From the NCBI GenBank assembly GCA_034666465.1, contig JAXDLT010000047.1, positions 1 to 52,177 of the forward strand: a stretch of 52,177 bases of DNA, given 5' to 3'. This DNA is from Chloroflexota bacterium. GTDB lineage: Bacteria; Chloroflexota; Dormibacteria; Aeolococcales; Aeolococcaceae. Positions 1,262 through 38,971 of the stretch are shown here, piece after piece. Position 1 is the stretch's first letter, and each line of letters starts with the position of its first letter. A model generated the notes under the pieces. The model worked only from the letters and a program-made list of their open reading frames with translations, was not told the origin of the DNA and searched no databases. A program made the translations under genes and the position numbers.

Positions 1262-1265
1262 GGCA

Positions 1266-2204: not shown

Positions 2205-2249
2205 GGCGTGGCTCCAGGAGGCGCGACCCGGGAAGGGGGCTGGTCACTT

Positions 2250-2276
2250 CATCGATACGAGAGCATAATATCGAAA
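2250..2276. promoter_or_regulatory. AT-rich divergent promoter region with two TATCGATA-like boxes (putative GntR operator)
   Basis: cATCGATA at 2250-2257 and TATCGAaA at 2269-2276 sit in the 123-bp gap between the divergent dioxygenase and monooxygenase genes. A perfect TATCGATA recurs at 4090-4097, upstream of the GntR gene. Confidence 0.4.
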
Positions 2277-2327
2277 TTCTGATCCGGCAAGTCCCCCCGG
2301 GTGCCGACGGACGAAGGAGTGGTGGTG

Positions 2328-4103: not shown

Positions 4104-4141
4104 TGGAGTGATTCCAGGATGAGGCGCAGTCTGAGCGACGG

Positions 4142-11523: not shown

Positions 11524-11646
11524 GGTTGGCGCCTCCTGGGTAGGCAGCAGTGCTCCGCATTGGCCCCATCCTGCCCCTGCCACCAGGACCGGCGCCACGA
11601 CCAGCTTCCTCTCTCCTGTTAGGCGCAGCCTCCCACGGCACGTACC

Positions 11647-21020: not shown

Positions 21021-23999
21021 ATGGTCGCCTACGACCGAGAGCCGCTGGACCCGAGCGCGGTGTCCTGGTCACCTCCGCACGCAGCGGGTGCGGTGGCGAC
21101 CGGGTCGGCGTCTCTCTCGATCCATCGCGGCACGGCGAGGGTGGTGACACCGACCACGACCGTGGCCGACGCCATCATCTCGACCGCGAGGACCACATCG
21201 ACGACCAGGCTGCAGGGCCGGAGCCGAGAGTGCCGGACCGTCGACCAGCTGGTCGCCGCCGCCCGTTCGGGGAGGAGCGGTGCCCTGCTCGTGCACGGCG
21301 CGCCGGGGATCGGCAAGTCCGCGCTCCTCGACCACGCGACGGAGGCCGCATCGGACTTCCGAGTCGCCCGCGCCGCCGGCGTCCAGTCGGAGATGGAGCT
21401 CGCCTTCGCCGGGCTGCACCAGTTCTGCGGGCAGATGCTCGGCCGCCTCCACCGGCTCCCCGGCCCCCAACGTGATGCGCTCAGCGCCGCCTTCGGTCTC
21501 ACCCCCGGCGTCGCGCCGGATCGCTTCCTCGTCGGCCTGGCCGTGCTCAGCCTGCTCGACGAGGTGGCCCAGGACCGGCCGCTGCTCGGGGTCGTCGAGG
21601 ACGCCCACTGGCTGGACCAGGCCTCCGCCCAGGTGCTCGCGTTCGTGGCCCGCCGCCTCCATGCCGTGCCGGTCGCCCTGATCTTCGCCGTACGCGACCC
21701 CGGTCCGGCGGCGGAGTTCGCGGGGATCCCCGAGCTGGAGCTCACCGGTCTGCCCGACGCCGACGCCCGCAGGCTGATCGCCTCGGTGATACCCGGACGG
21801 TTCGACGAACGGGTGCGCGACCGGATCGTCGCCGAGGCCCGGGGCAACCCGCTCGCCCTGCTCGAGCTGCATCACGGGCTGTCGGCCGCCGAGCTCGCCG
21901 GCGGCTTCGGGCTGACCGCCAGGCAGCCGCTGACCGGGCGGATCGAGGAGAGCTTCGTGCGCCGGATCGAGGCGCTCCCGGCGGAGACCCGACGGCTGCT
22001 CCTGATCGCGGCGGTCGAGCCCTGTGGCGAGCCGGCGCTGCTCCGGCGTGCGGCGGAACGGATGGGGATCGGCTGCGACGCCGCCGCCCCCGCCGAGGCC
22101 GACGGGCTGCTCCGCATCGGCGCACAGGTGAGCTTCCGTCACCCGCTGGTGCGCTCGGCGGTCCACCACGCGGCGTCTCCCGACGAGTGCCGGAGAGCCC
22201 ATCGCGCGCTCGCCGAGGCCATCGACCCCGACGTCAGTCCCGATCGCCGCGCCTGGCACCATGCCGAGGCGGCGCTCGGACCCGACGAGGAGGTCGCCGG
22301 CGACCTCGAGCGCTCGGCCGGAGAGGCCCGGACTCGGGGTGGCATGGCGGCGGCGGCAGCCTTCCTGGAGCGAGCCGCCGCGCTGACCCCCGATGCCACC
22401 CGCCGCGTGGAGCGCATCCTCGCCGCCGCCCGCGCCAAGCTGCGGGCCGGGGCGCCCGACGCGGCCCTGGGCCTGCTCGCCGTGGCCGAGGGGGGGCCGC
22501 TCGACGCCCTGCAGGGCGCCCGGCTGGAGCGGCTGCGCGCCGAGATCACCTTCGCCACCAGCCGCGGCAACGACGCCCCTCCCCTGCTCATCCGGGCGGC
22601 CAGGCGGCTCGAGCTCCTCGATCCACGGCTGGCACGGGAGACGTACCTCCAGGCGTTCGAGGCGGCGATGTTCGCCGGGAGGCTCGGCCGCGGCCGCGGG
22701 GTGCTGGACGTGGCCGACGCGGCCCGGGCAGCGCCCCCCGCCCCCGGCCCGCCACGCGCCGTCGACCTCCTCCTCGACGGCCTGGCGACGCTGCTCACCG
22801 AGGGATGGGCCGCCGGCGTGCCCCTGCTGCGGCGGGCCCTGGGCGCCGTCGAGGAGGAGGACGAGCGTCGATGGCTCCGCCTCGCCCGTGGCACCGCCGC
22901 CGACCTGTGGGAGGACGGCGCCACCCACGCGCTCGCCGCCCGCGAGGTCGAGCTCGCCCGCGAGGCGGGTGCTCTCACCCTGCTGCCGACCGCCCTCGAC
23001 CACCTCGCCGTCATCCACGTGCACGCCGGTGAGTTCGCCACGGCGGCGTCCCTGATCGAGGAGGCGGCCTCCATCACCGAGGCGACGGGCGGGGCCCCGA
23101 TCAGCGGCGGCGCCCTCGAGCTCGCCGCCTGGCGGGGACGAGCGGAGACGGCGGCGCTCGTCGACGCGTGCGTCGAGGACGCCGAAGCGCGTGGCGAGGG
23201 GATGCTCGTCACCCTCACGGAGTACGCCACCGCGGTGTTCGAGAACGGCCGCGGCAACTACGGCGCCGCCCTCGCCGCCGCGCGCCAGGCGTGCGAGCAC
23301 GGGGGGCTCGTCGGCGTCCGGGTGCTCCCCGAGCACGTCGAGGCGGCGGTGCGGGCGGGCCACCCGGAGGAGGCCGCCGCAGCCCTCGAGCGGCTCACCG
23401 AGCAGACCCAGGCGAGCCGGACGCAGTCCGCGCTCGGCCTCGAGGCCCGCTGTCGGGCGCTGCTCAGCGAGGGCGACCCCGCCGACGAGCTGTACCGCGA
23501 GGCCGTCGACCGGCTCGGCCGCTGCCGTGGTGCGGCGCAGCTCGCCCGCGCCCACCTCCTCTACGGGGAATGGCTGCGACGCGAGCGCCGGCGGCTGGAG
23601 GCGCGCGAGCAGCTGCGCACCGCCCGCGACACGTTCCTGTCGATGGGCGCCGAGGCCTTCGCCGCCCGCGCCGAGCGTGAGCTGCTCGCCACCGGCGAGC
23701 ACGCCCGCAGGCGCACGGTGGAGACGACCTTCGAGCTCACCCCACAGGAGCTGCAGATCGCGGGCCTGGCCCAGGCCGGCCTCTCCAACCAGGTGATCGC
23801 CGCCCGGCTCTTCATCAGCCCGCGCACCGTCGAGTACCACCTGCACAAGGTCTTCACCAAGCTCGGCATCGCCTCACGCACCCGGCTCCACCAGGCGCTG
23901 CTGCCGGAGCTGACCGGAGCTCCCGTGCGCAGCGAGCCGGGCCACGCCGCGGTGCCAGGTGCTGCCGCAGGCGAGCCGTTGGTGTGCGCGGGCGGCTGA
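21021..23999 (+). CDS. Large ATP-binding LuxR-family regulator (LAL / MalT-like: AAA+ P-loop, TPR-like middle, C-terminal LuxR HTH), paralog 1
   Basis: 992 aa maximum with HGAPGIGKSALLDHA (Walker A), VVEDAHWLD (Walker B) and LTPQELQIAGLAQAGLSNQVIAARLFISPRTVEYHLHKVFTKLGI. The start is uncertain; in-frame GTG 21162 would match the paralog's N-terminus better. Confidence 0.85.
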   Translation: MVAYDREPLDPSAVSWSPPHAAGAVATGSASLSIHRGTARVVTPTTTVADAIISTARTTSTTRLQGRSRECRTVDQLVAAARSGRSGALLVHGAPGIGKSALLDHATEAASDFRVARAAGVQSEMELAFAGLHQFCGQMLGRLHRLPGPQRDALSAAFGLTPGVAPDRFLVGLAVLSLLDEVAQDRPLLGVVEDAHWLDQASAQVLAFVARRLHAVPVALIFAVRDPGPAAEFAGIPELELTGLPDADARRLIASVIPGRFDERVRDRIVAEARGNPLALLELHHGLSAAELAGGFGLTARQPLTGRIEESFVRRIEALPAETRRLLLIAAVEPCGEPALLRRAAERMGIGCDAAAPAEADGLLRIGAQVSFRHPLVRSAVHHAASPDECRRAHRALAEAIDPDVSPDRRAWHHAEAALGPDEEVAGDLERSAGEARTRGGMAAAAAFLERAAALTPDATRRVERILAAARAKLRAGAPDAALGLLAVAEGGPLDALQGARLERLRAEITFATSRGNDAPPLLIRAARRLELLDPRLARETYLQAFEAAMFAGRLGRGRGVLDVADAARAAPPAPGPPRAVDLLLDGLATLLTEGWAAGVPLLRRALGAVEEEDERRWLRLARGTAADLWEDGATHALAAREVELAREAGALTLLPTALDHLAVIHVHAGEFATAASLIEEAASITEATGGAPISGGALELAAWRGRAETAALVDACVEDAEARGEGMLVTLTEYATAVFENGRGNYGAALAAARQACEHGGLVGVRVLPEHVEAAVRAGHPEEAAAALERLTEQTQASRTQSALGLEARCRALLSEGDPADELYREAVDRLGRCRGAAQLARAHLLYGEWLRRERRRLEAREQLRTARDTFLSMGAEAFAARAERELLATGEHARRRTVETTFELTPQELQIAGLAQAGLSNQVIAARLFISPRTVEYHLHKVFTKLGIASRTRLHQALLPELTGAPVRSEPGHAAVPGAAAGEPLVCAGG

Positions 24000-26397: not shown

Positions 26398-27237
26398 TCA
26401 GCCGCCGGCGGCCGGGCGCAGCGCGATGCCGAACTCGACGGCGAACGCCCGCCGTGGCGCGACGACACCGGCCAGCTCGGTGGGCCGGGGGGTGACGACC
26501 AGCTCGGGCTTCACGGCGCCGATGACGTCGTCCTCCAACCAGGGATCGCCGGCGATGAAGAGCATGGTGGTCAGCGCCTCGTGGCCCTCGGCGCTCGCCT
26601 TCACGTGGATGTGCGCGGGGCGGTTGTCGTGCCGGCCGAGCGAGGTGAGGAGGGCGGAGACGGGGCCGCCGGTGGTCGCGATCCGGTACGGACCGGGGAC
26701 GACGGTGCGCACCTCGTACCGCCCCTGCGCGTCGCACCGCACGCGTCCGCGCAGGTTGTACTCGGGCTGCGCGGGATCCTGATTCTCGTAGAGACCGTGC
26801 TGGTTGGCCTGCCAGACGTCGAGGACCGCGCCCGCCAGGGGCGCGCCCGACACCGCCTCGACGACCCGTCCGCGCATCAGCAGCGCATCCTCCCCCTGGT
26901 CGGCGTGGTCGAGCACCGCGGGGGTGTCGAGGATCGGGGCACCGGGCCGGTGGAGCGGACCCTCGACGTTGCTCGGCGTCGCTCCTCCGGCATCGGCCGG
27001 CTGGCCGAGCGCGTCGACCAGGATCGAGGTGTGGGTGACGTCGCTCAGGAGCATGAACTCCTCGGCCCCGCCCACCTCGGTGAGGAAGCGGACCAGCGCG
27101 TGGAGCTCCGGCTCGGTGAGGCGCAGCTCGCGGACCAGCTCGTGGACGGCGGTGACGGCGCGGAGGACGCAGGCACGCAGCCGCTCGGTCGTCTCGGGGC
27201 CGGTGGTGAGGCGGGGGGGAGTGGTCGCAGAGGTCAT
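26398..27237 (-). CDS. Intradiol ring-cleavage dioxygenase (hydroxyquinol/catechol 1,2-dioxygenase family)
   Basis: 279 aa. The Dioxygenase_N-like region reads LTEPELHALVRFLTEVG. Also present: VLDVWQANQHGLYENQ, GRYEVRTVVPGPY and RPAHIHVKASAEGH. AGGAG lies 8 nt before the ATG. Confidence 0.9.
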   Translation of the reverse strand: MTSATTPPRLTTGPETTERLRACVLRAVTAVHELVRELRLTEPELHALVRFLTEVGGAEEFMLLSDVTHTSILVDALGQPADAGGATPSNVEGPLHRPGAPILDTPAVLDHADQGEDALLMRGRVVEAVSGAPLAGAVLDVWQANQHGLYENQDPAQPEYNLRGRVRCDAQGRYEVRTVVPGPYRIATTGGPVSALLTSLGRHDNRPAHIHVKASAEGHEALTTMLFIAGDPWLEDDVIGAVKPELVVTPRPTELAGVVAPRRAFAVEFGIALRPAAGG

Positions 27238-27258
27238 CTCGTCGTCTCCTGGACCGGG

Positions 27259-28347
27259 TCAGCGCTGTGTGGCGGCGAGGCGGGTGGCCGGCGGGCTGCC
27301 TCGATATGCATCGTCGAGCATCGCGCGAATGCGGTCGCGGCCGCCGGCGAGGGGATCGTCCTCGCTGACGGCGGCGATGCGGTCGGCGGCCTCGTCGAGC
27401 GCGCCGGCGGGCATGCCGACCCCGGCGAGCGCGGTGGGCAGGCGCATGGACGACGCCAGGTCGAAGAGCGCCTCGGCCGGCTCGCCGCCGAGCACCGCGG
27501 CGAGCTGCGCCATCGCACGGGGAGCGCGCGGCGACACCAGCGCGACGGCGTGGGGGAGCACGATGCCGTGGGTCTCGGCGTGGGGCAGGTTCCAGCCGCC
27601 GCCGAGGACGTGGCAGGTTCGGTGGTGGATGCCGGTGCCGACCTGGGCGAGCGCGGTGCCGGCCAGGCAGGCTCCGGTGAGGCACTCGGCGTGCCCGGCG
27701 ACGTCCCCGGGGTCGGCGACGACGCGCGGCAGGCCGTGCAGGAGGCGGCGCATTCCCTCGACGGCCAGGGCCGAGGTGATCGGGTTGGCGGCGGTCACCC
27801 AGAGTGCCTCGGCGCAGTGGGCGAGCGCGTTCATGCCCGACGCGCCCGCGAGCCCTGCCGGCATCCCGACGCAGAGGTCGGGGTCGTAGACGACGGCGCG
27901 GGGAAGAACCCGGAGGTCGCGTCCGGTCTCCTTGCGGCCGTCGCGCGTGCGCCCATGGATCGGCGTCATCTCCGACCCCGAGTACGTCGTCGGGACGGCC
28001 ACGAGCGGCACGTCGAGCTCGAGAACGACGGCCTTGCCGAGGCCGGTGGCGGAGCCGCCCCCCACGCTGACGACGGCGTCCGCCGCGGCGGCGCGGCCAC
28101 GCTCGATCGCCTGGATCGCGACGAGCTCGGGCACGTGCTGCGCAGAGCCGGGGATGACGGCGGCAACCCGGTCGCCGAGCTGGGCACCGATGCTCGCGAG
28201 CGCGGCAGCGGTGGACCGGCCGCCGGCGATGAGCAGGACGCGTCGCGCCCCGAGCCGCTCGACCTCGGCCCCGACACGGCCGAGGGCGCCGCGGCCGGAG
28301 ACGACCCGCGCGGGCAGCGCCTCCCATGTGTACGGCTCGCCGGTCAC
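27259..28347 (-). CDS. Maleylacetate reductase (iron-containing alcohol dehydrogenase family)
   Basis: This is the C-terminal 362 aa of ORF 27259..29415, with VVSVGGGSATGLGKAV, LVAVPTTYSGSEMT, MNALAHCAEAL and GIHHRTCHVLGG. GTG 28347 overlaps the TGA of the DUF429 gene (GTGA). Confidence 0.85.
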   Translation of the reverse strand: MTGEPYTWEALPARVVSGRGALGRVGAEVERLGARRVLLIAGGRSTAAALASIGAQLGDRVAAVIPGSAQHVPELVAIQAIERGRAAAADAVVSVGGGSATGLGKAVVLELDVPLVAVPTTYSGSEMTPIHGRTRDGRKETGRDLRVLPRAVVYDPDLCVGMPAGLAGASGMNALAHCAEALWVTAANPITSALAVEGMRRLLHGLPRVVADPGDVAGHAECLTGACLAGTALAQVGTGIHHRTCHVLGGGWNLPHAETHGIVLPHAVALVSPRAPRAMAQLAAVLGGEPAEALFDLASSMRLPTALAGVGMPAGALDEAADRIAAVSEDDPLAGGRDRIRAMLDDAYRGSPPATRLAATQR

Positions 28348-29117
28348 GGTGTCGGGAGGTGGTGGAGACGGATCCTCTCCGCCAGCCTGGGAAGGCTCCC
28401 TCGTCTCGGGAGGGCGATCCAGCCCTCGACCGCCGCCAGCTCGCGCTGTTCCGGCGGGATGTCGTGGCAGAGGCCGGCGATCCTGGCTCGTGCGACGAGG
28501 CTCGCCACCAGGGCGTCGAACGCGTTGTCGTTCCGCGCGATGCAGCGCCAGTGCTCGTCGTCGCCGCGAAGCCACGGGGCCGCGTCGCGGAGGCCGGCCA
28601 CCAGGGTGGCGAGGGCGGCCGCCCCGGCGAGGCGCTTGTACCTCGTCGCCGTGAGCCCCCAGACCCGCAGGGCGCCCGCCGGGTAGACCTCGACGATGGG
28701 ACCGTCCCCGGTCCGATCGATCCCGGTGAGGAGCCTGGCCATGCGCATCGTCGGGTAGGCGATCCTGTCCGTCGAGACGCTGAGCGGGCGCCGGCCGGTC
28801 ACCTCCCGGACCGCCAGGTCCGTCGCTCGCAGCTCGAGAACGTGGGGGCCGTGCTCGCCCCAGGCCTCGCCTCGGTGGTGCCGTGAGAGCGCGCTCACGA
28901 AGGCGTCCGGCCAGCCCAGCGGCACGTCGATGCCGGTCTTGTCCGCCTGCTCTCCGATGATCGCGCGGATGGTGTCGTCGGTGACGCCCTCTGCGATCCG
29001 GCGGATGGCGGCTTCCCCGTGCTTCCACTCCACCCAGCAGGCGGCGGTGCCCTCCGACCGACTCGCCACGTCCAGGCCCACGGTCAGCATGGCGGTATGG
29101 TGCCAGCACCGGCTCAC
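28344..29117 (-). CDS. DUF429-family protein (predicted RNase-H-like fold, function unknown)
   Basis: 257 aa with LTVGLDVASRSEG, GIDVPLGWP, EVYPAGALRVWG, NAFDALVASLVA and EGWIALP. These match my recollection of DUF429. The start may be ATG 29090 (MLTVGLD). Confidence 0.7.
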   Translation of the reverse strand: MSRCWHHTAMLTVGLDVASRSEGTAACWVEWKHGEAAIRRIAEGVTDDTIRAIIGEQADKTGIDVPLGWPDAFVSALSRHHRGEAWGEHGPHVLELRATDLAVREVTGRRPLSVSTDRIAYPTMRMARLLTGIDRTGDGPIVEVYPAGALRVWGLTATRYKRLAGAAALATLVAGLRDAAPWLRGDDEHWRCIARNDNAFDALVASLVARARIAGLCHDIPPEQRELAAVEGWIALPRRGSLPRLAERIRLHHLPTP

Positions 29118-29185
29118 GCCGGTGGTGAGCCCGCCGCAGCGCCGCCGGACACCGGCCGGCTGCGAAAGACGCTGAGAGGGACCGA

Positions 29186-30001
<816 letters not shown>

Positions 30002-30899
30002 GCCGCAGACCGACCTGGAGGCTCCGCCGGCCTGGCGGACCTTCCCCAGCCGGCTCACGACGCTCTGCCTGGTCGAGCTGCGCAAGATCCGCCACGACCG
30101 GACCGAGCTCTACACCCGAGCCATCCAGCCGGCGCTCTGGCTGCTCATCTACGGCGAGACGATGTCGCAGCTCCGCGCCATCCCCACCGGCGGCCGCTCC
30201 TACCTCGACTTCCTCGCCCCGGGGATCATGGCCCAGTCGGCGCTCTTCATCGCCATCTTCTTCGGCATCCAGATCATCTGGGAGCGGGACGCCGGCATCC
30301 TCACCAAGCTGCTCACCACGCCCACCTCGCGCGCGGCGCTGGTCTGCGGCAAGGCCTTCGCCGCCGGCGCCCGCGCCACCCCCCAGGTGATCATCGTCCT
30401 CGCCCTCAGCGCGATCCTGCGCATCGGGCTCGACTGGAACCCGCTCCACCTCCTCGGCACGCTGGTCGTGGTGGTGCTCGGCGCCGCGTTCTTCTCGCTG
30501 CTCTCGGTGTCGATCGCGGGCGTGGTGCTGAAGCGCGACCGCCTCATGGGCATCGGCCAGGCCATCACCATGCCCCTCTTCTTCGCCTCCAACGCCCTCT
30601 ATCCGGCGCAGCTCATGCCCGGCTGGCTGCGCGGGCTGAGCACGGTGAACCCGCTGAGCTACGAGGTCGACGCTCTCCGCGGCATGCTCCTGGGCACCCC
30701 GAGCGCCCTCGCCCTCGACCTCGCGGTCCTCGTCGCCGCGACGGTCGCCGCCGTGGCGGTCGCCTCCGCTCTGCTCCACCGGCTGGCCCAGTAGCCGGCC
30801 GGCGCCGGCGCCACCCGGACAGCCGCTCCCGCCCCAGCCCAGCCCGCCGCGCCGCAGGATCGCGGGATTCGGCACCCTGCCCCACCCTCTCCGGCATCG

Positions 30900-32090
30900 T
30901 CACGGCTCCTCCCCACCGGCACCGACCTCGACGCGCTCGAGCAGGGCGCGACTCCGACTGCGCAGGTCGCCGAGAGCCGGACCGAGCCGACCGCGGACGA
31001 TGCGCACCAGCTCGGCGAAGTCCTCTGCGGATCGGGTCGCATCGTCGACCTCCCGGACGGCGTCCGCCAGTGCCGCGCGCGCCGGGGCGGCGTGCGGGTT
31101 GGCGTGCTGGATGCGCCGATAGAGCTCCGGCTCGGCGACGCTGATGCGGGCGACGAGCAGGAGAAGTGCCTGGAAGGGAGGCGTTGCCAGCCGCCAGCCG
31201 CCCTCGCCCGTCAGAGCGGCGAGGGCGCGACCGACCGCCAGGATGGCGGCATGGACCACCGCCTGGGTGAGCGCCACCTCGCGGTCGTGCTCGTCGGCCC
31301 CCAGCCTCACCACCGTCGCGCCGGCCGCCTCCACGATGGCGAGGAGCTGCCGCGTGTGGGGCCCCGACCGGAGCGGCACGGCGGCCACGCGCCTCCCGGC
31401 GAAGCCGAGGTCCGGGGAGAACAGCGGGTTGAGGCTCAGGATCTCGACGTCGCCGCGGGCACCCCCGGCCCACGTCGCGACCGGGGTCTTCACCGACGTC
31501 GTGTCGGCGATCAGCGCCCCCCGCGGCAGCGACCGATGGAGCACCTCCATCACCGCCACCGCCCCGGCGTCGGGCACGCAGACGACCACCCAGTCGCAGC
31601 GGGCGGCGGCGGCCTCGACGGCACCTCCCGGGCACGTCGCATCGCCGACGATGTCTCCCTCCGCGCCGTCCCCACCGGGACGGAGATCCACCCCGACGAC
31701 CTCGACTCCCGCCCCCCGCAGCAGCTCCGCCATCGATGCCCCCACGCCGCCGCGGGCGCCGACGACCATCGCGCGCGCGACCGGTCCTCGATGCGGAGGA
31801 CGTCCGCTGCCCGCGATCTCCCGCACGATCTCGTGCTCGCGAGCGCAGGTGGCCGCGATCACCACCTCGTAGACGCTGCGCACGAACTGCGGCTGCAGAC
31901 CGTGGACGACGGCCCGCTCGGAGCAGCGCCGCAGGACTCCCTCGACCCGGGCCCGCTGCATGACGGGAATCCCCTCGCGGGCCTTGTGCCCCGCCACCGC
32001 CTCGCAGATTCGCATCCGCGCCCCCAGAAGGGAGACGAGCTGCTCGTCGATTCCATCGATCTGCGCGCGACAGGAATCGAGGTCGCTCAC
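30900..32090 (-). CDS. Chorismate-mutase (AroQ) / prephenate-dehydrogenase-like fusion protein; candidate PapB-PapC (4-amino-4-deoxychorismate mutase / 4-amino-4-deoxyprephenate dehydrogenase)
   Basis: This is the C-terminal 396 aa of ORF 30900..32300. The AroQ helix reads CRAQIDGIDEQLVSLLGARMRI. The Rossmann motif reads MVVGARGGVGASMAELL. The TyrA-like block reads ILSLNPLFSPD...EHDREVALTQAVVH. GTG 32090 overlaps the PabAB TGA (GTGA). Confidence 0.8.
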   Translation of the reverse strand: MSDLDSCRAQIDGIDEQLVSLLGARMRICEAVAGHKAREGIPVMQRARVEGVLRRCSERAVVHGLQPQFVRSVYEVVIAATCAREHEIVREIAGSGRPPHRGPVARAMVVGARGGVGASMAELLRGAGVEVVGVDLRPGGDGAEGDIVGDATCPGGAVEAAAARCDWVVVCVPDAGAVAVMEVLHRSLPRGALIADTTSVKTPVATWAGGARGDVEILSLNPLFSPDLGFAGRRVAAVPLRSGPHTRQLLAIVEAAGATVVRLGADEHDREVALTQAVVHAAILAVGRALAALTGEGGWRLATPPFQALLLLVARISVAEPELYRRIQHANPHAAPARAALADAVREVDDATRSAEDFAELVRIVRGRLGPALGDLRSRSRALLERVEVGAGGEEP

Positions 32091-34228
32091 CGTCGAGCCT
32101 CCGCGCCGGTGCGCAGAAGCCTCAGAGAGCGAGCCAGCGCTGCGGCCTTGAGCATGGTCTCGTCGAACTCCAGGTCGGGGTCGGACAGGGCGACGATGGC
32201 GCCCCCGACCCCGATCGTGGTCCGTTCCGGGGTCGCGACCGCGGTTCGGATGACGATGCTCAGCTCGGCGGCCCCATCGAGGCCCAGCCAGCCGATGCAC
32301 CCGGAGTACACCCCACGAGGCCCTGGCTCCAGCCGGTCGAGGATCTCCAGCGTGCGAGCCTTCGGAGCGCCGGTCATCGAGCCCCCGGGAAACGCGGCGC
32401 GCAGGCAGTCGACCACGTTTCGATCAGGACGCAGGAGCCCGCTGACGGTGCTGACGAGGTGATGCACCGTGGCGAACGACTCGACGTCCATCAGGGTGGG
32501 GACGCCGACACTGCCGAGTTGACAGACAGACCCCAGGTCGTTGCGGAGGAGATCGACGATCATGAGGTGCTCGGCTCGGTCCTTCACGCTCGAGGCGAGG
32601 AGGTCGCGCAGCCGTGCATCCTCGGTCGGATCGTCACTGCGCCCTGCGGTTCCCTTGATCGGCTTCGCCGACACACGACCGTCCTGGGTGATGCGCAGGA
32701 ATCGCTCGGGCGAGGACGAGAGCACCGCGAGGGAACCGAAGCGCAGGTACGCCGCGTAGGGGGCCGGGCTCACGCTGCGGAGGATGCGGTAGAGGTCGAG
32801 TGGACGCCGCACCGCGCCCGTGGAGATCTCGTTGGTGAGGCAGATCTCGTAGCTCTCGCCCTCGTCGATCTCGCGCTTGCACCGGGAGATGTCGTCCAGG
32901 TAGCCGGCCCTCTCGCGGCGCAGGGTCAGGGTCGTCGGGCCCTCGTGTCCCCCCGCCGGCGGGCGCGGAGTGGGGGGCGTGCGCTCCAGCCGCACCGTCA
33001 CCTCCTCGAACCATCGCTCCGCTGTGTCGCCATCCCCGGGCGCCGTCAGCGCCACGAGGTGGAGCCTGCTCTCGAGATGGTCGAACACCAGGCAGCGATC
33101 GGCGAGGATGACGGCCGCGTCCGGATACGGCGACGGGTGCGTCGAGGGGTACCCGCAGTCATGCTTGAGCTCATACCCGAGGTAGCCGACGAACCCGCCC
33201 TGGAACTCGAAGGGCAGGTCACCGCTCAACGAGGCGGCGGCCTTCAGCTCGCTGTCGAGCAGGTCGAGGATGCGCCCACTCCACTGCTCGGTGACGCCTC
33301 CACGTGCGACGGTGACCGTGCGCTCCTCCATCTCGTAGATCAGAACGGCGCTGGATGGACCGGTGGCGGACCCCATGTAGCTGAACCGTCCCACCCCGGG
33401 GCCGCGGAGCGCGCTGTCGAGCCAGAAGGCGTGCTGGGCCTCCCCGAAGAGTTCGACGAAGACCGCCTCGGGGTCGTGGAAGACGGAGAGAGCGCGCGTC
33501 GTCAGACGGAGCGCACCCAGGCCCAGGCGCGATCCCGTGCGCCCGGTGTCCCTGCCCGGACGGGTCACGCAGTGAGCGTCAGCGCCGGGATCCGTCCAGC
33601 CCGCGCGCTCGGGCTGCGCAGCTCGCCGGTCGGCGCGAACGGCGGAGCCGTGGGCGTGGCTCAGGGCGAGGAAATTGTGGATCAGCGTCGTGCCGTGCTC
33701 GGTGCCGATCGACTCGGGATGGAACTGCACTCCCCACAACGGCAGGCTCCGGTGCCGGATGCCCATGAGAACGCCGTCATCGCTCCACGCGGTGACCTCG
33801 AGCTCCTGTGGCACGTCACCGCCGATCGCGAGGGAGTGATAGCGCATGGCCGCGAACCCCTGCGGGATCTCGTGGAACAGCGCGGACCCGTTGTGCGTCA
33901 CCCGGCTGGTGCGTCCGTGCATCGCCTCGGGCGCGTGACCGACGTGCGCGCCGTGGTAGTGGCCGAGACCCTGGTGGCCAAGGCAGACTCCGAGCACGGG
34001 CCGGCCAAGTCCGGTCACCGCAGTCCTGCAGACACCGAAGTCGCGCGCACGACCGGGGTGGCCGGGGCCGGGAGAGACGATGATCGCATCGACGTGGAGC
34101 ATCGCGAGCTCGTCGGGTGTGATCGCGTCGTTTCTCACCACGCGCGGCCATCGTCCCAGCGCCTCACCGACCATCTGAACCAGGTTGAAGGTGAAGGAGT
34201 CGTAGTTGTCGATCACCAGCACGTTCAT
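32087..34228 (-). CDS. pabAB: Fused aminodeoxychorismate synthase (glutamine amidotransferase + chorismate-binding component I)
   Basis: 713 aa. The N-terminal GATase reads MNVLVIDNYDSFTFNLVQ..GVCLGHQ..VQFHPES. The C-terminal chorismate-binding block reads YEICLTNE..PAPYAAYL..SSSPERFL..IKGT..GGSMTGAPK..RGVYSGCIGW. Confidence 0.9.
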   Translation of the reverse strand: MNVLVIDNYDSFTFNLVQMVGEALGRWPRVVRNDAITPDELAMLHVDAIIVSPGPGHPGRARDFGVCRTAVTGLGRPVLGVCLGHQGLGHYHGAHVGHAPEAMHGRTSRVTHNGSALFHEIPQGFAAMRYHSLAIGGDVPQELEVTAWSDDGVLMGIRHRSLPLWGVQFHPESIGTEHGTTLIHNFLALSHAHGSAVRADRRAAQPERAGWTDPGADAHCVTRPGRDTGRTGSRLGLGALRLTTRALSVFHDPEAVFVELFGEAQHAFWLDSALRGPGVGRFSYMGSATGPSSAVLIYEMEERTVTVARGGVTEQWSGRILDLLDSELKAAASLSGDLPFEFQGGFVGYLGYELKHDCGYPSTHPSPYPDAAVILADRCLVFDHLESRLHLVALTAPGDGDTAERWFEEVTVRLERTPPTPRPPAGGHEGPTTLTLRRERAGYLDDISRCKREIDEGESYEICLTNEISTGAVRRPLDLYRILRSVSPAPYAAYLRFGSLAVLSSSPERFLRITQDGRVSAKPIKGTAGRSDDPTEDARLRDLLASSVKDRAEHLMIVDLLRNDLGSVCQLGSVGVPTLMDVESFATVHHLVSTVSGLLRPDRNVVDCLRAAFPGGSMTGAPKARTLEILDRLEPGPRGVYSGCIGWLGLDGAAELSIVIRTAVATPERTTIGVGGAIVALSDPDLEFDETMLKAAALARSLRLLRTGAEARR

Positions 34229-34301
34229 GCGGCGATATTCTGCGTCAGCCCTGCGGTGGGGCCACGCGGCGCGGAGGGAGCGGAGGGGTCCGTGACCCCC
34301 G

Positions 34302-35270
34302 TCAGACGCTCTCGGGCGAGGGTCCGCCGACGGGCACGGCGTCGCGCATGATGTCGTCGATGCGGCTCAGCAGCTCGTCGTCGAGCTCAAGATCCGCGGC
34401 GGCGACGGCGTCGTCGACGTGGTCGGGGCTGCGGGTGCCGACGATGGCGACGTGGACCGCCGGATTGGCCAGCGTCCAGGCGACAGCCAGGCGGCTGACG
34501 CCGACGCCGAGCTCGTCGTGGGCGAGTTGCTCGAGCGCGGCGACCACCTCCAGGTTGCGCCGGTAGGGCTCGCCGCGGAAGACCGTGCTCCTGCCACGCC
34601 AGTCGTCCGGCGTGAAGCGATGGCCGGCGTTGAGGCGGCCGCTCAGCAGACCGTGGGCGAGCGGACCATAGGCGAGGACGCCGATGTCGTGCTCCGTCGT
34701 GTACGGCAGGATCTCCCGTTCGATGTCGCGGCGGAACAGGTGGTACGGGGGCTGGAGCGTCTCGACGGGGAGCGTGGCGCTGAAGGCGTCCATCTCCTCG
34801 GGGCTGAAGTTGGACACGCCGACGTGTCGCACCTTCCCCTCGGCCACCAGCTCGGCGAGAGCGCCCGCGGTCTCCTCGAACGGGATCTTCGGATCCGGCC
34901 AGTGCACCTGATAGAGGTCGACGTACTCGGTGTCGAGCGCGCCGAGGCTCTCCTCGACGCCCTTGCGAATCCACTCCGGGCTGGAGTCCCGCACGATGCC
35001 GTCGCCGGCGGGTCGCAGCCCGCCCTTGGTCGCGACGACGACCTGGTCGCGCGGCCGCCCCTCGAGGGCACGGGCGAGCAGGCGCTCGGAGGCGCCGAAG
35101 CCGTAGCCCTGGGCGGTGTCGAAGAGGGTCACGCCCCGGTCGGCGGCGCGGCGGATCGCGGCGATGGCGGCGGACTCGTCGGTCGTCCCCCAGTCACCCC
35201 CGAGCTGCCAGGTGCCGAAGGCGACGCGCGACACCATGAGGTCGCTCCGTCCCAGCCTGATCTGCCTCAT
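34302..35270 (-). CDS. Aldo/keto reductase
   Basis: ORF 34302..35531. The start is ATG 35270 (MRQIRLGRSDLMVSRVAFGTWQLGG), with GGAGGG 8 nt upstream. Also present: LFDTAQGYGFGASE and YQVHWPD. Confidence 0.9.
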   Translation of the reverse strand: MRQIRLGRSDLMVSRVAFGTWQLGGDWGTTDESAAIAAIRRAADRGVTLFDTAQGYGFGASERLLARALEGRPRDQVVVATKGGLRPAGDGIVRDSSPEWIRKGVEESLGALDTEYVDLYQVHWPDPKIPFEETAGALAELVAEGKVRHVGVSNFSPEEMDAFSATLPVETLQPPYHLFRRDIEREILPYTTEHDIGVLAYGPLAHGLLSGRLNAGHRFTPDDWRGRSTVFRGEPYRRNLEVVAALEQLAHDELGVGVSRLAVAWTLANPAVHVAIVGTRSPDHVDDAVAAADLELDDELLSRIDDIMRDAVPVGGPSPESV

Positions 35271-35472
35271 CGCGCCGCCCTCCGGCCGAAGCCGTGTCAT
35301 CCCGTGGTGTCTCGCATCGTCGCAGCAGGCGTTGCATCGATGTTGCACCGCACCCCAGGGGGGTGACTGGGGACCAGACCAGGGGGCTCCCCGATGCGAA
35401 CACCGCGCCGCGATGTGACCATGGTGTCCACAGTCACACCACCGGGTCCGTAACACGAGCGAGGTACCGACC

Positions 35473-35898
35473 GTGACCAGTGTCGCCGCACCCGCAAGCA
35501 CCGTCCGAGGTCCCTCGATCGATCGGGCCACGGCTGACTACTCCCGGCACCGCGGCGCGTGGCTCGCCGGCCGCCGTCTCCAGGAGGCACGGCGGCGCGC
35601 CGTCCGCGCCGTGGACGCCCTCATCGAGACGGTCGAGGAGATCAACCTGTCCGGCCGTGGCCGGCAGCACGACCCCCTGATCCCCCATCGCCTCCGCCGG
35701 CTCGAGGTCGAGATCGGCCGGCCGGTGCCCGAGGCGGTGCGCCGTGCGCGGAACGCGCACAAGCTGCACGCCGCGCTGATGGACTGGCAGGAGGAGCTCC
35801 TCGACGAGGCGTGCCCCGCCCGCGAGCTCCACGGTGCCGTGGACGAGGCCCCGACGGAGCGGTTGGTGGACTGGTCACGCGGCGAGGACCCGGCCTGA
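35473..35898 (+). CDS. Hypothetical protein (helical, charged; no family recognised)
   Basis: 141-aa ORF with a GTG start, high GC3 and balanced composition (..LIETVEEINLSGRGRQHDPLIPHRLRRLEVEIG..LHAALMDWQEELLDEA..). It is divergent from the AKR-pabAB operon. Confidence 0.5.
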   Translation: MTSVAAPASTVRGPSIDRATADYSRHRGAWLAGRRLQEARRRAVRAVDALIETVEEINLSGRGRQHDPLIPHRLRRLEVEIGRPVPEAVRRARNAHKLHAALMDWQEELLDEACPARELHGAVDEAPTERLVDWSRGEDPA

Positions 35899-36015
35899 GC
35901 ACACGTGCTCCAGCACCCTGGGGACGCGAGCCCGCCGCCGCCGGATCACCGTCCCAGGCGAGGTCGTTCCCGGAGATGCGGGGCTTCCACCCGGTTCCCT
36001 CCGCCGGTCCAGCCG

Positions 36016-38778
36016 TCATGAGGTGGAAGAGTAGGCGTCCCCCGCGACGCCGGGGATGAGGTTCCCGAGCTCGGTGCGCGAGCCGATGCCGAGCTTGGCG
36101 AAGACCTTGCCGAGGTGGTACTCGACAGTGCGCGGGCTGAGGAAGAGGCGGGCGCCGATCTCCTGGTTGGAGAGACCCTCGTGCGCGAACCGCGCGATCT
36201 GCATCTCCTGCGCGGTGAGCCGGTCGCCGGACTCGACCCTCGGCTTGAGCGCGCGCGAACCGGCGGCGAGCAGCTCGCGCGCGGCACGGTCCGCGAAGGC
36301 CTTCGCGCCCATCGACACGAACATCTCGTGCGCGATGCGCAGCTGCTCGCGGGCGTCCAGCTTCCGGCGCTCGCCTCGCAGCCACTCGCCGTAGAGGAGA
36401 TGGGCGCGGGCGAGGTGGGGCGTGGTGCGGGTGCGGCTCAGCCGGTCGAGCGCCTCACGGAACAGGTCCTCGGCGTCCCGGCCCTCCGTGACGAGCGCGA
36501 GGGAGCAGGCACGCAGTCCCAGTGCCAGCTCGGTCCCGCTGCACCGAGTGAGCTCGGACAGCAGCTGGAGAAAGGGACGCGCGAGCTCGACCTGGCCGCT
36601 TCGGGCCGCCGCCTCGACCAGCTCGGGCAGTGCCGAGCTGATGGTCTCTCCGGAGGCACACGCGCGCTGTGCGGCGGCCAGTGCGGTGCCATGGTTCCCC
36701 AGGCCGTTGTGGAGGATGGCGGCCGAGTACTCGACGATGGTGATCGCCACGCCCTCGCCCCGAGCCTCGGCGTCCTCGAGCATCTCCTCGGCAAGCCGGG
36801 TGTGCTCGCCCTCGTGGCCGCGCCAGGCGGCGAGGTAGACCTCGGCGAAGGAGATGGGCGGGGTGCCGGTCGCGGCGGTGATCGACGTCTTCTCCTCGAC
36901 CATCGCCGCGGTCGTGGCGAAGTCGCCGGTCAGCATGGTCGCCCCGGCCAGAAGGGTGAGAAGGAGGGGAAGGTGGATCAACGCGCCGGTGTCGCGAGCG
37001 GACTGCACCGCACGCGTGGCGAGGGTGAGCCCGGCCTCGTACTCCCACAGCTGCCACGCGGTGCGCACCGCGAGTCCCAGCCAGCGGAGGTCGTCGCTGT
37101 GGCGATAGGCGCTGAGCGCCCGCTTCAGCGTCGGGACTCCCGCCGCGCACCCCTCGGTGAGCAGCGCGGCGAGGCCGTCGAGCAGCAGGTCGCTCGCCTG
37201 CGGCGGGCCTGGCGCCGGCGGGGCGGCACGAGCCGCCGCGGCCACCTCGAGCACCCCCCGGTCGCCTGGCCGAGACCCGGCGAACAGCGCCGCCTCCAGC
37301 GCCTCGAGGTAGGTCTCGCGTGCCAGCCGGATGTCGAGTGGCTCGAGCCTTCGCGCCGCGCTGAGCAGCAGGGGGGGCGCATCCCCACCACGCCGGGTGA
37401 CAAAGGCGATCCGTGCGCGGATCCGCTCCAGCTCGGCGCGTCCCATCTCGTCGAGACGTCCCACGTCCGCCGCGTCGAGCAGCCCCGACGCCGCCCCGGC
37501 CGATCCCGCGTCGATGTCGGCCCGGGCGGCGGCGAGCAGGCGCTCGGCCCGGCGGCCCGGGTCGGGGGTGAGGGCGACCGCCCGCTCGAGGAGGGCCGCC
37601 GCCGCCAGCAGGCTTCCTCGACCCTGGGCACGCGCCGCGGAGCGCTCGAGCTCGTCCGCGAGCTGCTCGTCCGGGCCGAGCGCAGCGTGGGCGCGGTGCC
37701 ATGCCCGGCGTTCGGGGTCGAGGCCGGGGTCCATGACGTCGGCGAGCGCCCCGTGGACGGTGCGGAGCTGGGCCGGAGACGCCGCCCGAGAGACCGCGGA
37801 GCGCACCAGGGGATGGCGAAAGGCGACGCGGGGGCTGAGCACCACCAGCCCGTCGGCCTCCGCCGGCGCTGCCGCGTCGACGCCGATGCCGAGCCGCGCC
37901 GCCGCCCGCCACAGCACCTGCGGCTCGCCGGTGGGCTCGACCGCCGCCGCGAGCAGCAGCAGCCGGGTCGCGGGGGGCAGCTGCTCGACCCGCCCCATGA
38001 AGCTCTCCTCGATCCGGTGGGGGACCGGCGGTGGGCCCGGCAGGCCGACCCCGGTGACCAGCTCCGCCGGCTCGAGACCGTGGGGGAGCTCGAGCAGGGC
38101 GAGCGGGTTCCCGCGGGTCTCGGCGACGATGCGGTCGCGCACGCGCGCGTCGAGCCTGCCCGGGGTGACCGAGTCGAGCAGCTCGCGGGCATCCCGGTCC
38201 GGCAGGCCCTGGACGCGGAGCTCCGAGAGACCCTCGAACTCCGGTGCCGCGCAGGGCTCGCGGATCGCGAGGAGCATGACGACGGACTCCGCCTGCAGCC
38301 GGCGTGCGGCGATGGCGAGCACCTGGGCCGACTCCCGGTCGAGCCATTGGGCGTCCTCGACGACGCACAGGAGGGGCCGCTCCTCGGCGACGTCGGCCAG
38401 GAGGCTGAGCACGGCGAGGCCGACGAGGAAGCGATCGGGTGCGGCGCCCGCGGTCAGCCCGAAGGCGGACCCCAGCGCGTCGCGCTGGGGCGCAGGCAGA
38501 CGACCCAGCCGGTGGAGCATCTGTCCGCAGAGCTGATGCACGCCGGCGAACGGCAGCTCCATCTCGGGCTCCACGCCGGTGACGCGGGCGACGCGAAAGC
38601 CGGACGTCGTCTCGACGGCGTGGTCGAGGAGGGCGGTCTTGCCGATTCCCGCCTCGCCGCGGAGCACCAGCACGCCGCTCCGCCCCTCGTGGACGGCCCC
38701 GAGCAGGCGGTCGAGAGCGTCGCACTCCCTGCGGCGATCGCGCAGTGTCCTCCGGCCCAGCGGCCCGCTCTCGACCAT
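36016..38778 (-). CDS. Large ATP-binding LuxR-family regulator (LAL / MalT-like), paralog 2
   Basis: 920 aa with RGEAGIGKTALLDHA, VVEDAQWLD and LTAQEMQIARFAHEGLSNQEIGARLFLSPRTVEYHLGKVFAKLGI. It is collinear by eye with the 21021..23999 product along its whole length. Confidence 0.9.
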   Translation of the reverse strand: MVESGPLGRRTLRDRRRECDALDRLLGAVHEGRSGVLVLRGEAGIGKTALLDHAVETTSGFRVARVTGVEPEMELPFAGVHQLCGQMLHRLGRLPAPQRDALGSAFGLTAGAAPDRFLVGLAVLSLLADVAEERPLLCVVEDAQWLDRESAQVLAIAARRLQAESVVMLLAIREPCAAPEFEGLSELRVQGLPDRDARELLDSVTPGRLDARVRDRIVAETRGNPLALLELPHGLEPAELVTGVGLPGPPPVPHRIEESFMGRVEQLPPATRLLLLAAAVEPTGEPQVLWRAAARLGIGVDAAAPAEADGLVVLSPRVAFRHPLVRSAVSRAASPAQLRTVHGALADVMDPGLDPERRAWHRAHAALGPDEQLADELERSAARAQGRGSLLAAAALLERAVALTPDPGRRAERLLAAARADIDAGSAGAASGLLDAADVGRLDEMGRAELERIRARIAFVTRRGGDAPPLLLSAARRLEPLDIRLARETYLEALEAALFAGSRPGDRGVLEVAAAARAAPPAPGPPQASDLLLDGLAALLTEGCAAGVPTLKRALSAYRHSDDLRWLGLAVRTAWQLWEYEAGLTLATRAVQSARDTGALIHLPLLLTLLAGATMLTGDFATTAAMVEEKTSITAATGTPPISFAEVYLAAWRGHEGEHTRLAEEMLEDAEARGEGVAITIVEYSAAILHNGLGNHGTALAAAQRACASGETISSALPELVEAAARSGQVELARPFLQLLSELTRCSGTELALGLRACSLALVTEGRDAEDLFREALDRLSRTRTTPHLARAHLLYGEWLRGERRKLDAREQLRIAHEMFVSMGAKAFADRAARELLAAGSRALKPRVESGDRLTAQEMQIARFAHEGLSNQEIGARLFLSPRTVEYHLGKVFAKLGIGSRTELGNLIPGVAGDAYSSTS

Positions 38779-38971
38779 GGCTGAGGCTGGATCCTACGGC
38801 ACCAGGGAGCTCGTCGCGTCCGTCAGGGCCGAGAGCGAGCCACGGGATGTGGCCGGCAGCCCGCGGTCACGTCGCATCGTTCGAGAGGACGGGCTCAGTG
38901 CGGCGACCGGCCCATCCAGCCCGCCAGGCGGTCGTGGGCCGGCGCACCCTCGGGCACGGGCACCTCCGCGG

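Follow-up and report, generated by a model that had tools for sequence, protein, structure and literature searches.

A PapABC-type gene module with a fused PapB-PapC protein on a Chloroflexota contig, most likely for the formation of 4-aminophenylpyruvate

The minus-strand genes following an aldo/keto reductase (AKR) gene in the window, which is the whole analyzed stretch of 52,177 nucleotides, most likely form a PapABC-type module that, judged from the sequence, would convert chorismate to 4-aminophenylpyruvate, the precursor of p-aminophenylalanine (PAPA). A fused PabAB protein would use chorismate and glutamine-derived ammonia for the synthesis of 4-amino-4-deoxychorismate (ADC), which the N-terminal AroQ domain of the subsequent fusion protein (PapB/CmlD type) would transform into 4-amino-4-deoxyprephenate by a Claisen rearrangement. 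Oxidative decarboxylation with NAD+ by the C-terminal TyrA-fold domain (PapC/CmlC type) would yield 4-aminophenylpyruvate, and a general aromatic aminotransferase encoded elsewhere may perform the step to p-aminophenylalanine. The module is located within a small accessory block with LAL regulators on both flanks and no NRPS. This kind of enzyme set is well known from chloramphenicol biosynthesis. A previous sequence-only reading of the region had preferred a Pap-type route over the synthesis of PABA for folate or of tyrosine, and similarity to the Cml proteins, active-site signatures, synteny with PabAB and the distance from TyrA in the tree all argue for this preference.

The gene layout was that of the previous reading. 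The AKR gene, pabAB and the gene for the AroQ/TyrA-like fusion follow each other on the minus strand, with 73 nt between the AKR stop codon and the ATG of PabAB (Table 1). The fusion comprises 396 aa (32090..30900, minus strand). The GTGA overlap between both pap genes was confirmed: the TGA of pabAB (32089..32087) shares bases with the GTG of the fusion (32090..32088), and a GGAGG is positioned 7 nt 5' of this GTG. The GC3 values of AKR, pabAB and the fusion were between 0.86 and 0.93, which is of the coding type in all three frames. A 6-bp hairpin, GGGGTC-cgt-GACCCC, had been indicated just behind the AKR stop codon and is indeed present at 34285-34299, but it did not exceed chance expectation and was discarded as a feature. 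The fold of the 73-nt spacer was no more stable than that of shuffled sequences (z = 0.69), the hairpin has no terminator-like tail, and no terminator-like site was called between AKR and pabAB.

Table 1. Positions of the features of the PapABC-type module and its neighborhood in the window
Feature	Position	Strand	Basis
AKR gene, first of the run	34302..35270	-	322 aa, AKR11-like, PF00248 E = 2e-80
Spacer between AKR and pabAB, 73 nt, with 6-bp hairpin	34229..34301	-	Sequence read
Fused PabAB (PapA/CmlB-type, predicted 4-amino-4-deoxychorismate synthase)	32087..34228	-	713 aa; Pfam, TIGR00553
GTGA stop/start overlap, coupling of pabAB to papBC	32087..32090	-	Sequence read
PapB (CmlD-like) AroQ domain, residues 1-95, predicted 4-amino-4-deoxychorismate mutase	31806..32090	-	CM_2
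PapB-PapC linker, residues about 96-105	31776..31805	-	Predicted model; comparison with L004 and L005
PapC (CmlC-like) TyrA-fold domain, residues about 106-396, predicted NAD-dependent 4-amino-4-deoxyprephenate dehydrogenase	30900..31775	-	PDH_N, PDH_C
Codon of Asn221 in the PapC domain	31428-31430	-	
DrrA/DrrB-like ABC-2 exporter pair	29186..30001 and about 29892..30794; indel 29139..30893	+	Pfam, NCBIfam
DUF429, maleylacetate reductase and intradiol dioxygenase operon	26398..29117	-	Pfam, PDB matches
LAL-type regulator (AAA_16 and LuxR) flanking the block	21021..23999	+	Pfam
Second LAL-type regulator flanking the block	36016..38778	-	Pfam

PabAB contains the Pfam domains GATase (PF00117), Anth_synt_I_N (PF04715) and Chorismate_bind (PF00425). 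It reached 338.6 bits with the NCBIfam model TIGR00553 (pabB), above the cutoff of 328.4, and stayed below the cutoffs of all trpE models. The motif with the lysine residue of ADC synthases, PIKGT, was present (AKPIKGTAGR), together with the GATase motifs GVCLGHQ and FHPES. We take this lysine residue to be the catalytic one (K274 in PabB from Escherichia coli), replaced by alanine in anthranilate and ADIC synthases. The protein was 48% identical to CmlB from S. venezuelae over 680 aa, and its combination of a GATase domain, a chorismate-binding (MST) domain and the catalytic-Lys motif places it among the fused PabAB ADC synthases. Pfam scans of about 45 ORFs revealed no Aminotran_4 (PabC) gene in the 52-kb window, as the previous reading had stated. 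PabAB could nevertheless be the only ADC synthase of the cell, with a distantly encoded PabC channeling ADC to folate synthesis and PapBC drawing off a part of the pool. Such a dual use fits all data on PapBC, and fused PabAB proteins serve the primary metabolism in many actinobacteria. It is unlikely, however, since cmlB in the S. venezuelae cluster is an additional copy beside a primary homologue (PMC4249514), and since both the flanking SARP and LAL regulators and the way pabAB is translationally coupled to papBC speak for a dedicated use.

The mutase half of the fusion was matched by CM_2 (PF01817) at residues 7-85 (E = 1e-19) and was 30% identical to CmlD. Its predicted model displays the three helices of the AroQ fold at residues 2-39, 46-62 and 67-95, with pLDDT values between 85 and 96. 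Two motifs, PVMQRARV and ATCAREHE, correspond to P-x-M-Q-x-x-R-[IVM] and x-C-x-x-E, both of which also occur in CmlD. Of the mutase genes in pap loci, 71 in number, all but one had the first motif; the canonical AroQ motif is x-D-x-x-R-E, and a canonical AroQ aligned alongside showed E-D-x-x-R-E. For the second, 39 of these 71 genes could be scored, and the final position was Glu in 37 and Gln in 2 of them. The M-Q core was also present in 17 of 17 fusion clusters, one of them with Gln instead of Arg. These PapB motifs, and likewise the Asn signature of PapC described below, were derived in the present analysis and are not curated definitions. The equivalents of D48, E52 and Q88 of canonical AroQ are Q, V and E in the window mutase, and these substitutions may handle the 4-amino group. 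The dN/dS ratio of the mutase domain was 0.44 in comparison to contig L005 and 1.22 in comparison to contig L003, the latter being a noisy estimate from 95 codons.

The AroQ fold is shared by the isochorismate-pyruvate lyase PchB, which was among the weak PDB and NCBIfam matches. A PchB-like domain acting on ADC as a pyruvate lyase would produce PABA without PabC, in agreement with the lack of PabC in the window, and would leave some other task to the TyrA-like domain. This is very unlikely, because the diagnostic motifs are common to CmlD/PapB and the window domain, because the mutase is constantly paired with an Asn-type dehydrogenase, and because papBC from S. venezuelae together with pabAB from C. 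glutamicum led in E. coli to the formation of PAPA and not of PABA (PMC6148955). An ADC mutase of the PapB type remains the preferred assignment.

The dehydrogenase half carries PDH_N and PDH_C (Pfam) at residues 124-353 of the fusion and was 45% identical to CmlC (PapC) from S. venezuelae. The closest Foldseek match of the predicted model (mean pLDDT of 92) was TyrA from H. influenzae (2PV7, TM 0.81), and the domain has the TyrA fold with the Rossmann NAD site and the Ser and Arg binding residues. GARGGVG, Ser199 and Arg315, which is the Arg residue for the ring carboxylate, were invariant in the family alignments. The catalytic His of TyrA (H197 in E. coli) polarizes the 4-hydroxyl group of prephenate. 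In the HMMER alignment to 2PV7, Asn221 occupies the position of this His, and CmlC also possesses an Asn there (VGLNPMFAP). The same was true for 145 of 172 family members, with the His retained in 19. The true TyrA proteins, clusters P0026 and P0027, kept the His and were placed on tree branches of more than 3 substitutions per site. An H197N exchange in E. coli TyrA reportedly decreases the dehydrogenase activity by orders of magnitude. Asn221 may have a role in handling the 4-amino group, and it is on the basis of such sequence features that we infer the catalytic activities of PabAB and of both halves of the fusion.

The fusion did not reach the cutoff of any TyrA equivalog model. Its best NCBIfam match was PRK11199, the model for the bifunctional chorismate mutase/prephenate dehydrogenase, with 108.7 bits and a cutoff of 273. 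No PapB- or PapC-specific model was among the NCBIfam matches to the fusion, which were TyrA and chorismate-mutase models and related ones for isochorismate lyase, all below cutoff. Most homologues carry the JGI label "prephenate dehydrogenase." The nearest stand-alone homologues (45-58% identity) are located in clusters composed of PabAB, CM_2 and PDH genes, and some of them were labeled 4-amino-4-deoxyprephenate dehydrogenase by JGI.

These top matches in NCBIfam and in structure would also be expected if the fusion served tyrosine synthesis as a T-protein-like chorismate mutase/prephenate dehydrogenase, with PabAB working for folate synthesis and PabC encoded elsewhere. TyrA from E. coli and H. 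influenzae is built like the window fusion, with an AroQ domain at the N-terminus that a short linker connects to the TyrA dehydrogenase, and both have kept the Ser and Arg residues for substrate binding. Such a housekeeping function is very improbable, however, because the score is far below the equivalog cutoff, Asn stands in place of the catalytic His, the mutase is devoid of the D48, E52 and Q88 equivalents, the true TyrA proteins are distant in the tree, and the locus is situated among antibiotic-type regulators. The window fusion arose independently of the T-protein, from split pap genes. Decay into a pseudogene was also rejected: the ORFs are intact, dN/dS was about 0.3 for pabAB and for the dehydrogenase domain, and the predicted model is a confident one.

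The PapABC-type assignment agrees with the known systems. In S. venezuelae ATCC 10712, cmlB, cmlC and cmlD are adjacent in the cml locus (L056), and deletion of cmlC or cmlB abolishes chloramphenicol production (PMC4249514). CmlB, CmlC and CmlD, equivalent to PapA, PapC and PapB, and also PapABC from S. pristinaespiralis and Pseudomonas fluorescens SBW25 belong to the same three enzyme families as the window proteins. With the PapABC genes from S. venezuelae and P. fluorescens, E. coli forms PAPA by means of its own aminotransferases. The cml locus and the window have in common the Asn-for-His exchange, M-Q-x-x-R-V and C-x-x-E, and the adjacent, translationally coupled position of the three genes, but the order is A-B-C in the window and B (PabAB)-C-D (mutase) in cml. 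PapB and PapC are separate proteins in all characterized systems (PMC4249514, PMC4863162, PMC7570522) and form a single polypeptide in the window.

As the previous reading had noted, no NRPS or aminotransferase gene was found by the Pfam scans of about 45 ORFs in the 52-kb window, and the scans of the window revealed also no DAHP synthase, ligase, beta-hydroxylase, N-oxygenase or halogenase. The missing NRPS, DAHP synthase, beta-hydroxylase, N-oxygenase and halogenase distinguish the window from cml, and the missing dedicated aminotransferase, DAHP synthase, NRPS and ligase distinguish it from cml and from the Mycolicibacterium-type pap cluster. The dnacin B1 cluster of Actinosynnema pretiosum resembles the window in that it harbors a PapABC trio, DinV/DinE/DinF, and no cluster-encoded aminotransferase, the last transamination being left to a TyrB-type enzyme from outside the cluster (PMC7570522). 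These are separate proteins inside an NRPS cluster, in contrast to the situation in the window.

Synteny in other genomes was evaluated with a scan pattern taken from an 11-sequence alignment. An Asn-type dehydrogenase was present in 80 named genomes, of which 72 encode PabAB and 67 a CM_2 mutase within 10 kb of it; because the pattern itself demanded the Asn, these counts are valid for Asn-type genes only. PapABC modules proved to be widespread among the Actinomycetota, and PapB/PapC fusions recur.

The same fused ORF was found in the protein clusters P0004 (12 member sequences), P0005 and P0006, which come from JGI, ENA and Logan assemblies, and in contig L003 with the same 4-nt overlap to pabAB. 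With no fewer than three independent assemblies containing this ORF, an assembly error can be dismissed as the source of the fusion. In a Chloroflexota MAG relative with about 90% identity, papB and papC are separate genes with a spacer of roughly 30 nt and a stop codon between them. Because this nearest relative has the split genes, the fusion is recent, the linker being the result of the loss of the roughly 30-nt spacer. The related contigs L004 and L005 contain about 30 extra nt at the position of the linker, including the TGA stop codon of papB, and about 70 nt instead of the 4-nt overlap at the pabAB/papB junction. Residues 96-101 of the linker were the sole segment of the model with a pLDDT below 50. 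In its architecture, the resulting protein copies the T-protein from E. coli for the amino series.

At least 17 other clusters at 50% identity are PapB/PapC fusions, with both domain orders represented (PDH-CM in eight of them), and one of these other fusions is also translationally coupled to PabAB. A PapB-PapC fusion had been regarded as an unusual format in the sequence-only reading, which holds in relation to the characterized pathways but not in view of these database clusters. P0030, from a metagenome (L085), is like the window protein a CM-PDH fusion with an Asn-type dehydrogenase and an M-Q-type mutase, and its start overlaps the end of PabAB. It was 38% identical to the window fusion, is the product of an independent fusion event, and is encoded in the context of NRPS-like, formyltransferase and carbamoyltransferase genes. 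Neither a report on a fused PapB-PapC protein nor a structural study of PapC was found in the literature outside subscription journals. A contig scan of metagenomes with the fusion (pattern QIDGIDEQ) yielded generic gut AroQ mutases (22-33% identity) and no close relative.

The surroundings of the module are variable. The closest solved relatives of the AKR are GSP69/YhdN and IolS from B. subtilis. L004 and L005 encode the AKR with 96% identity and have a SARP regulator gene between it and pabAB: the alignment of the window with these contigs breaks at 34259-34262, and the relatives carry there a SARP gene of 2.2 kb. L005 contains beside the AKR gene a 77%-identical homologue of the second LAL regulator in the opposite relative orientation. 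The exporter pair (ABC_tran and ABC2_membrane in Pfam; top NCBIfam models TIGR01188, drrA, and TIGR01247, drrB) is convergent with papBC. The previous reading had listed this DrrAB pair as part of the context; the pair is present, but as a 1.75-kb window-specific indel, which is missing in L003, L004 and L005. In these contigs the flanks meet within about 0-28 nt, and papC abuts or overlaps the DUF429 operon. The flanking LAL regulators, SARP in the clusters of the relatives and DrrAB in the window suggest a setting of secondary metabolism, which counts for the Pap reading.

In the DUF429 operon, the maleylacetate reductase was matched by the PDB entries 3W5S and 3HL0 (E about 1e-82) and the dioxygenase by catechol or hydroxyquinol 1,2-dioxygenases. 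The DUF429 protein had no NCBIfam match and no meaningful PDB match, its family of more than 1,000 members has only the label "predicted nuclease with RNase H fold," and an 82%-identical DUF429 protein was found in an unrelated context. Homologues of the AKR, DUF429, maleylacetate reductase, dioxygenase and ALDH were found neither at the other 76 pap loci of named genomes nor at the metagenome pap loci L001 and L002. Because these partners are missing from other pap loci, neighbor conservation gives no hint of the end product. The products suggested in the previous reading, 4-aminophenyl-ethanol, -acetate or -lactate, are guesses. Any functional tie of the operon to the pap genes is hypothetical. 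It seems quite improbable that papABC forms one transcription unit with the genes for DUF429, maleylacetate reductase and intradiol dioxygenase that, together with AKR, ALDH and ABM, would generate a new metabolite independently of an NRPS, in which a chorismate-derived amino-aromatic compound would be hydroxylated, ring-cleaved to a product of the amino-muconate/maleylacetate type and exported by the acquired DrrAB pump.

The exchange of His by Asn together with M-Q-x-x-R-V and C-x-x-E provides simple discriminators of PapC and PapB from TyrA and AroQ. A natural PapB-PapC protein on a single polypeptide is an analogue of the T-protein for the amino series and could be suited for the engineering of aromatic amines. 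Nothing known is overturned by the module, which is a modest addition to a well-known kind of enzyme. If confirmed, it would mean that the p-aminophenylalanine branch of the shikimate pathway reaches an uncultured soil lineage of the Chloroflexota type, in a minimal context without NRPS.

The three minus-strand ORFs of the region have a coding-type GC3 of 0.86 to 0.93 in a window with a G+C content of about 72%. The ADC synthase with fused GATase and chorismate-binding parts described in the sequence-only reading was confirmed by its Pfam domains (see the table), by a score that passes the curated threshold of TIGR00553, the NCBIfam equivalog for pabB, and by its motifs. The translation contains the amidotransferase motifs GVCLGHQ and FHPES as well as PIKGT, the ADC-synthase lysine motif (K274 in E. 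coli PabB), and all NCBIfam trpE models scored the protein below their own cutoffs. The described overlap of its stop codon with the start of an AroQ-mutase/TyrA-like fusion also held, with the TGA of pabAB and the GTG of papBC overlapping at 32090-32087 and GGAGG located 7 nt upstream of this GTG, as did the position of the aldo/keto reductase (AKR) gene upstream of pabAB. The 6-bp hairpin noted downstream of the AKR stop exists, but the AKR-pabAB spacer did not fold better than shuffled sequence (z = 0.69) and no terminator-like site was called in it; therefore, the hairpin carries no weight. As had been stated, PabC (Aminotran_4), NRPS, and aminotransferase genes were not found by Pfam among the approximately 45 ORFs of the entire window.

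Features of the pap region, its surroundings, and a compared mycobacterial locus
Feature	Position	Strand	Description
AKR gene	35270..34302	(-)	Stop 73 nt upstream of pabAB
SARP gene of relatives	window 34259-34262; L005:5473-7720; L004:1262-3244		Gene absent from the window
PabAB, 713 aa	34228..32087	(-)	Pfam GATase, Anth_synt_I_N, Chorismate_bind
papBC fusion, 396 aa	32090..30900	(-)	Pfam AroQ CM_2, residues 7-85; PDH_N/PDH_C, residues 124-353
DrrA/DrrB-like pair	30893-29139		ABC-2 exporter, convergent with papBC; clean 1.75-kb indel against L003, L004, and L005 (BLASTN)
Aromatic-catabolism genes	422-4861 and 10885-11649		FAA-hydrolase-family, glyoxalase-type dioxygenase, FAD aromatic-ring hydroxylase, GntR regulator; 254-aa ORF with two muconolactone-isomerase repeats
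L043 pap cluster	L043 6223-20075		AMP-binding, papB, pabAB, papC, class I/II aminotransferase, AMP-binding, MFS, ATP-grasp, DAHP synthase, FAD/NAD(P)-binding protein

A word-indexed and an exhaustive HMMER search for homologues of the dehydrogenase half yielded a large family, with 197 clusters at E < 1e-30. Most members are stand-alone and some 300 aa long, and several bear the JGI label 4-amino-4-deoxyprephenate dehydrogenase. The adjacent cmlB, cmlC, and cmlD genes of Streptomyces venezuelae encode the nearest characterized counterparts used for comparison, with 48% identity to the window PabAB, 45% to the dehydrogenase domain, and 30% to the mutase domain. In the study that names these three genes, chloramphenicol production is abolished by deletion of cmlC or cmlB (PMC4249514), and S. 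venezuelae papBC together with a pabAB leads to p-aminophenylalanine in E. coli (PMC6148955). In the HMMER alignment, Asn221 of the window protein occupies the position of the catalytic His of Haemophilus influenzae TyrA (2PV7), and CmlC possesses the same Asn, in VGLNPMFAP. Asn was present here in 145 of the 172 aligned family members and His in 19; the substitution is a trait of the family rather than a defect. Ser199 and Arg315, which correspond to Ser and the ring-carboxylate Arg in TyrA, were invariant in the alignments. The AlphaFold model of the fusion was confident (mean pLDDT 92.3) and comprised the three helices of the AroQ domain, a TyrA fold, and between them a linker that is disordered (residues 96 to 101). 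Its top PDB match was H. influenzae TyrA (TM 0.81), and no PapC structure was among the solved relatives matched in the PDB by sequence or structure. In the tree, which the sequence-only reading had proposed as a check, the fusion grouped with the Asn-type proteins, and the bona fide TyrAs P0026 and P0027 were on branches of more than 3 substitutions per site. The dehydrogenase half is of the PapC/CmlC type, not TyrA.

In the mutase half, P-V-M-Q-R-A-R-V aligns with x-x-x-D-x-x-R-E of canonical AroQ mutases, and T-C-A-R-E is at the site that corresponds to S84...Q88 of E. coli chorismate mutase. CmlD shows the same pattern, whereas the T-protein-like P0026 kept P-E-R-E. M-Q-x-x-R-[IVM] was found in 70 of the 71 mutase genes beside Asn-type dehydrogenases; the x-C-x-x-E position, scorable in 39 of the 71, contained Glu in 37 and Gln in 2. 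In the E. coli enzyme, contacts to the C4 substituent and to the ether oxygen are made from these positions, and we infer that the substitutions adapt the site to a 4-amino group. This half is of the PapB/CmlD type. The dN/dS value of the mutase domain (31806-32090, 95 codons) was 1.22 versus L003 and 0.44 versus L005, two contigs with close relatives of the locus, and about 0.2 to 0.4 for all other genes; the high value versus L003 is a noisy one and, with just 95 codons, may be noise.

A scan of GTDB species genomes yielded 80 loci, the chloramphenicol locus of S. venezuelae ATCC 10712 among them. Within 10 kb of the dehydrogenase gene, PabAB was present in 72 and a mutase in 67 of the 80 named genomes, including Mycobacterium/Mycolicibacterium, Rhodococcus, Lentzea, Microbispora, and Streptomyces; these counts apply to Asn-type genes, since the scan pattern itself demanded the Asn. 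The nearest stand-alone homologues are likewise in PabAB, CM_2, and PDH clusters (L001 and L002). This synteny supports the Pap pathway reading. A pap cluster type widespread in mycobacteria, represented by Mycolicibacterium rhodesiae JS60 (L043), contains no conventional NRPS; therefore, such Pap modules are not rare. The L001 and L002 soil metagenome contigs represent an uncharacterized cluster type, in which PabAB, PapB, and PapC are accompanied by a biopterin-dependent aromatic hydroxylase, an ATP-grasp ligase, a sulfotransferase, and an asparagine synthase.

The papB-papC fusion is real: the fused ORF recurs in the clusters P0004 (12 member sequences), P0005, and P0006 and on L003. L004 and L005 (Chloroflexota MAG, RYN_342), with about 90% identity, instead have two genes, papB for 107 aa and papC for 306 aa. 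Between them lie some 30 additional nt that include the TGA of papB, while the window reads through at this junction as ...GSGRPPHRGPVARAMVVG... The pabAB-papB gap is about 70 nt in L004 and L005, compared to the GTGA overlap in the window and L003. Judged from these alignments, the fusion is recent. The sequence-only reading had called a fused PapB-PapC unusual. This stands for the characterized systems, in which both are separate proteins (PMC4249514, PMC4863162, PMC7570522), and no report of such a fusion was found in the openly accessible literature, but 17 more fusion clusters (nine CM-PDH and eight PDH-CM, all with the M-Q motif) occurred among the best 150 representative clusters. One of these, P0030 (38% identical), has its start in overlap with the 3' end of PabAB, next to a gene of more than 2,200 aa.

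The DrrAB-like exporter noted nearby is present but specific to the window; in L003, L004, and L005, the papC end and the DUF429 start are only about 0 to 28 nt apart. A DrrA-like ABC ATPase, 44 to 46% identical to that of the window, is encoded about 2 kb downstream of an Asn-type PapC-like gene in six Rhodococcus/Rhodococcoides loci (L041, L045, L055, L057, L061, and L075), which have no PabAB or mutase gene within 10 kb. In the window, DUF429 is adjoined by a maleylacetate reductase gene (PDB match, E ~1e-82), followed by an intradiol dioxygenase gene, a small Cys-rich ORF, the aldehyde dehydrogenase gene already reported, and an ABM-like ORF; more aromatic-catabolism genes are located elsewhere in the window. 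An 82%-identical DUF429 was found in an unrelated context, and no other locus compared had the neighbors of the window pap block next to its pap genes. In the 90%-identical relative L003 (5388-6678), no more than the first 53 or so codons of the intradiol dioxygenase gene remain. In place of the rest stands an unrelated sequence of about 1.3 kb with ORFs of 291 and 178 aa and a faint NTP_transf_2 match, which means a disrupted gene or a chimeric assembly. In L004 and L005, but not in the window, the AKR gene is separated from pabAB by the gene for a 660-aa SARP-type regulator (Trans_reg_C, BTAD, AAA_16). LAL regulators are on both flanks of the block. A LAL regulator with the small ORF 35419-35898 (window 35346-38801) has the opposite orientation versus the AKR gene in L005:703-4126, which suggests an inversion, possibly between two inverted LAL paralogues.

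The locus is very probably a PapABC module with a recently fused PapB-PapC, for which a predicted Pap-type route is the best reading. The earlier preference for this route over folate PABA or tyrosine synthesis agrees with the similarity to CmlB/C/D, the Asn and M-Q signatures, the synteny, and the tree. Neither the enzymes nor the pathway are new, PapB-PapC fusions turn up repeatedly in databases, and the module occurs widely. Mildly new are the minimal context without NRPS or aminotransferase, the host lineage, and the sequence discriminators of PapC/PapB versus TyrA/AroQ.
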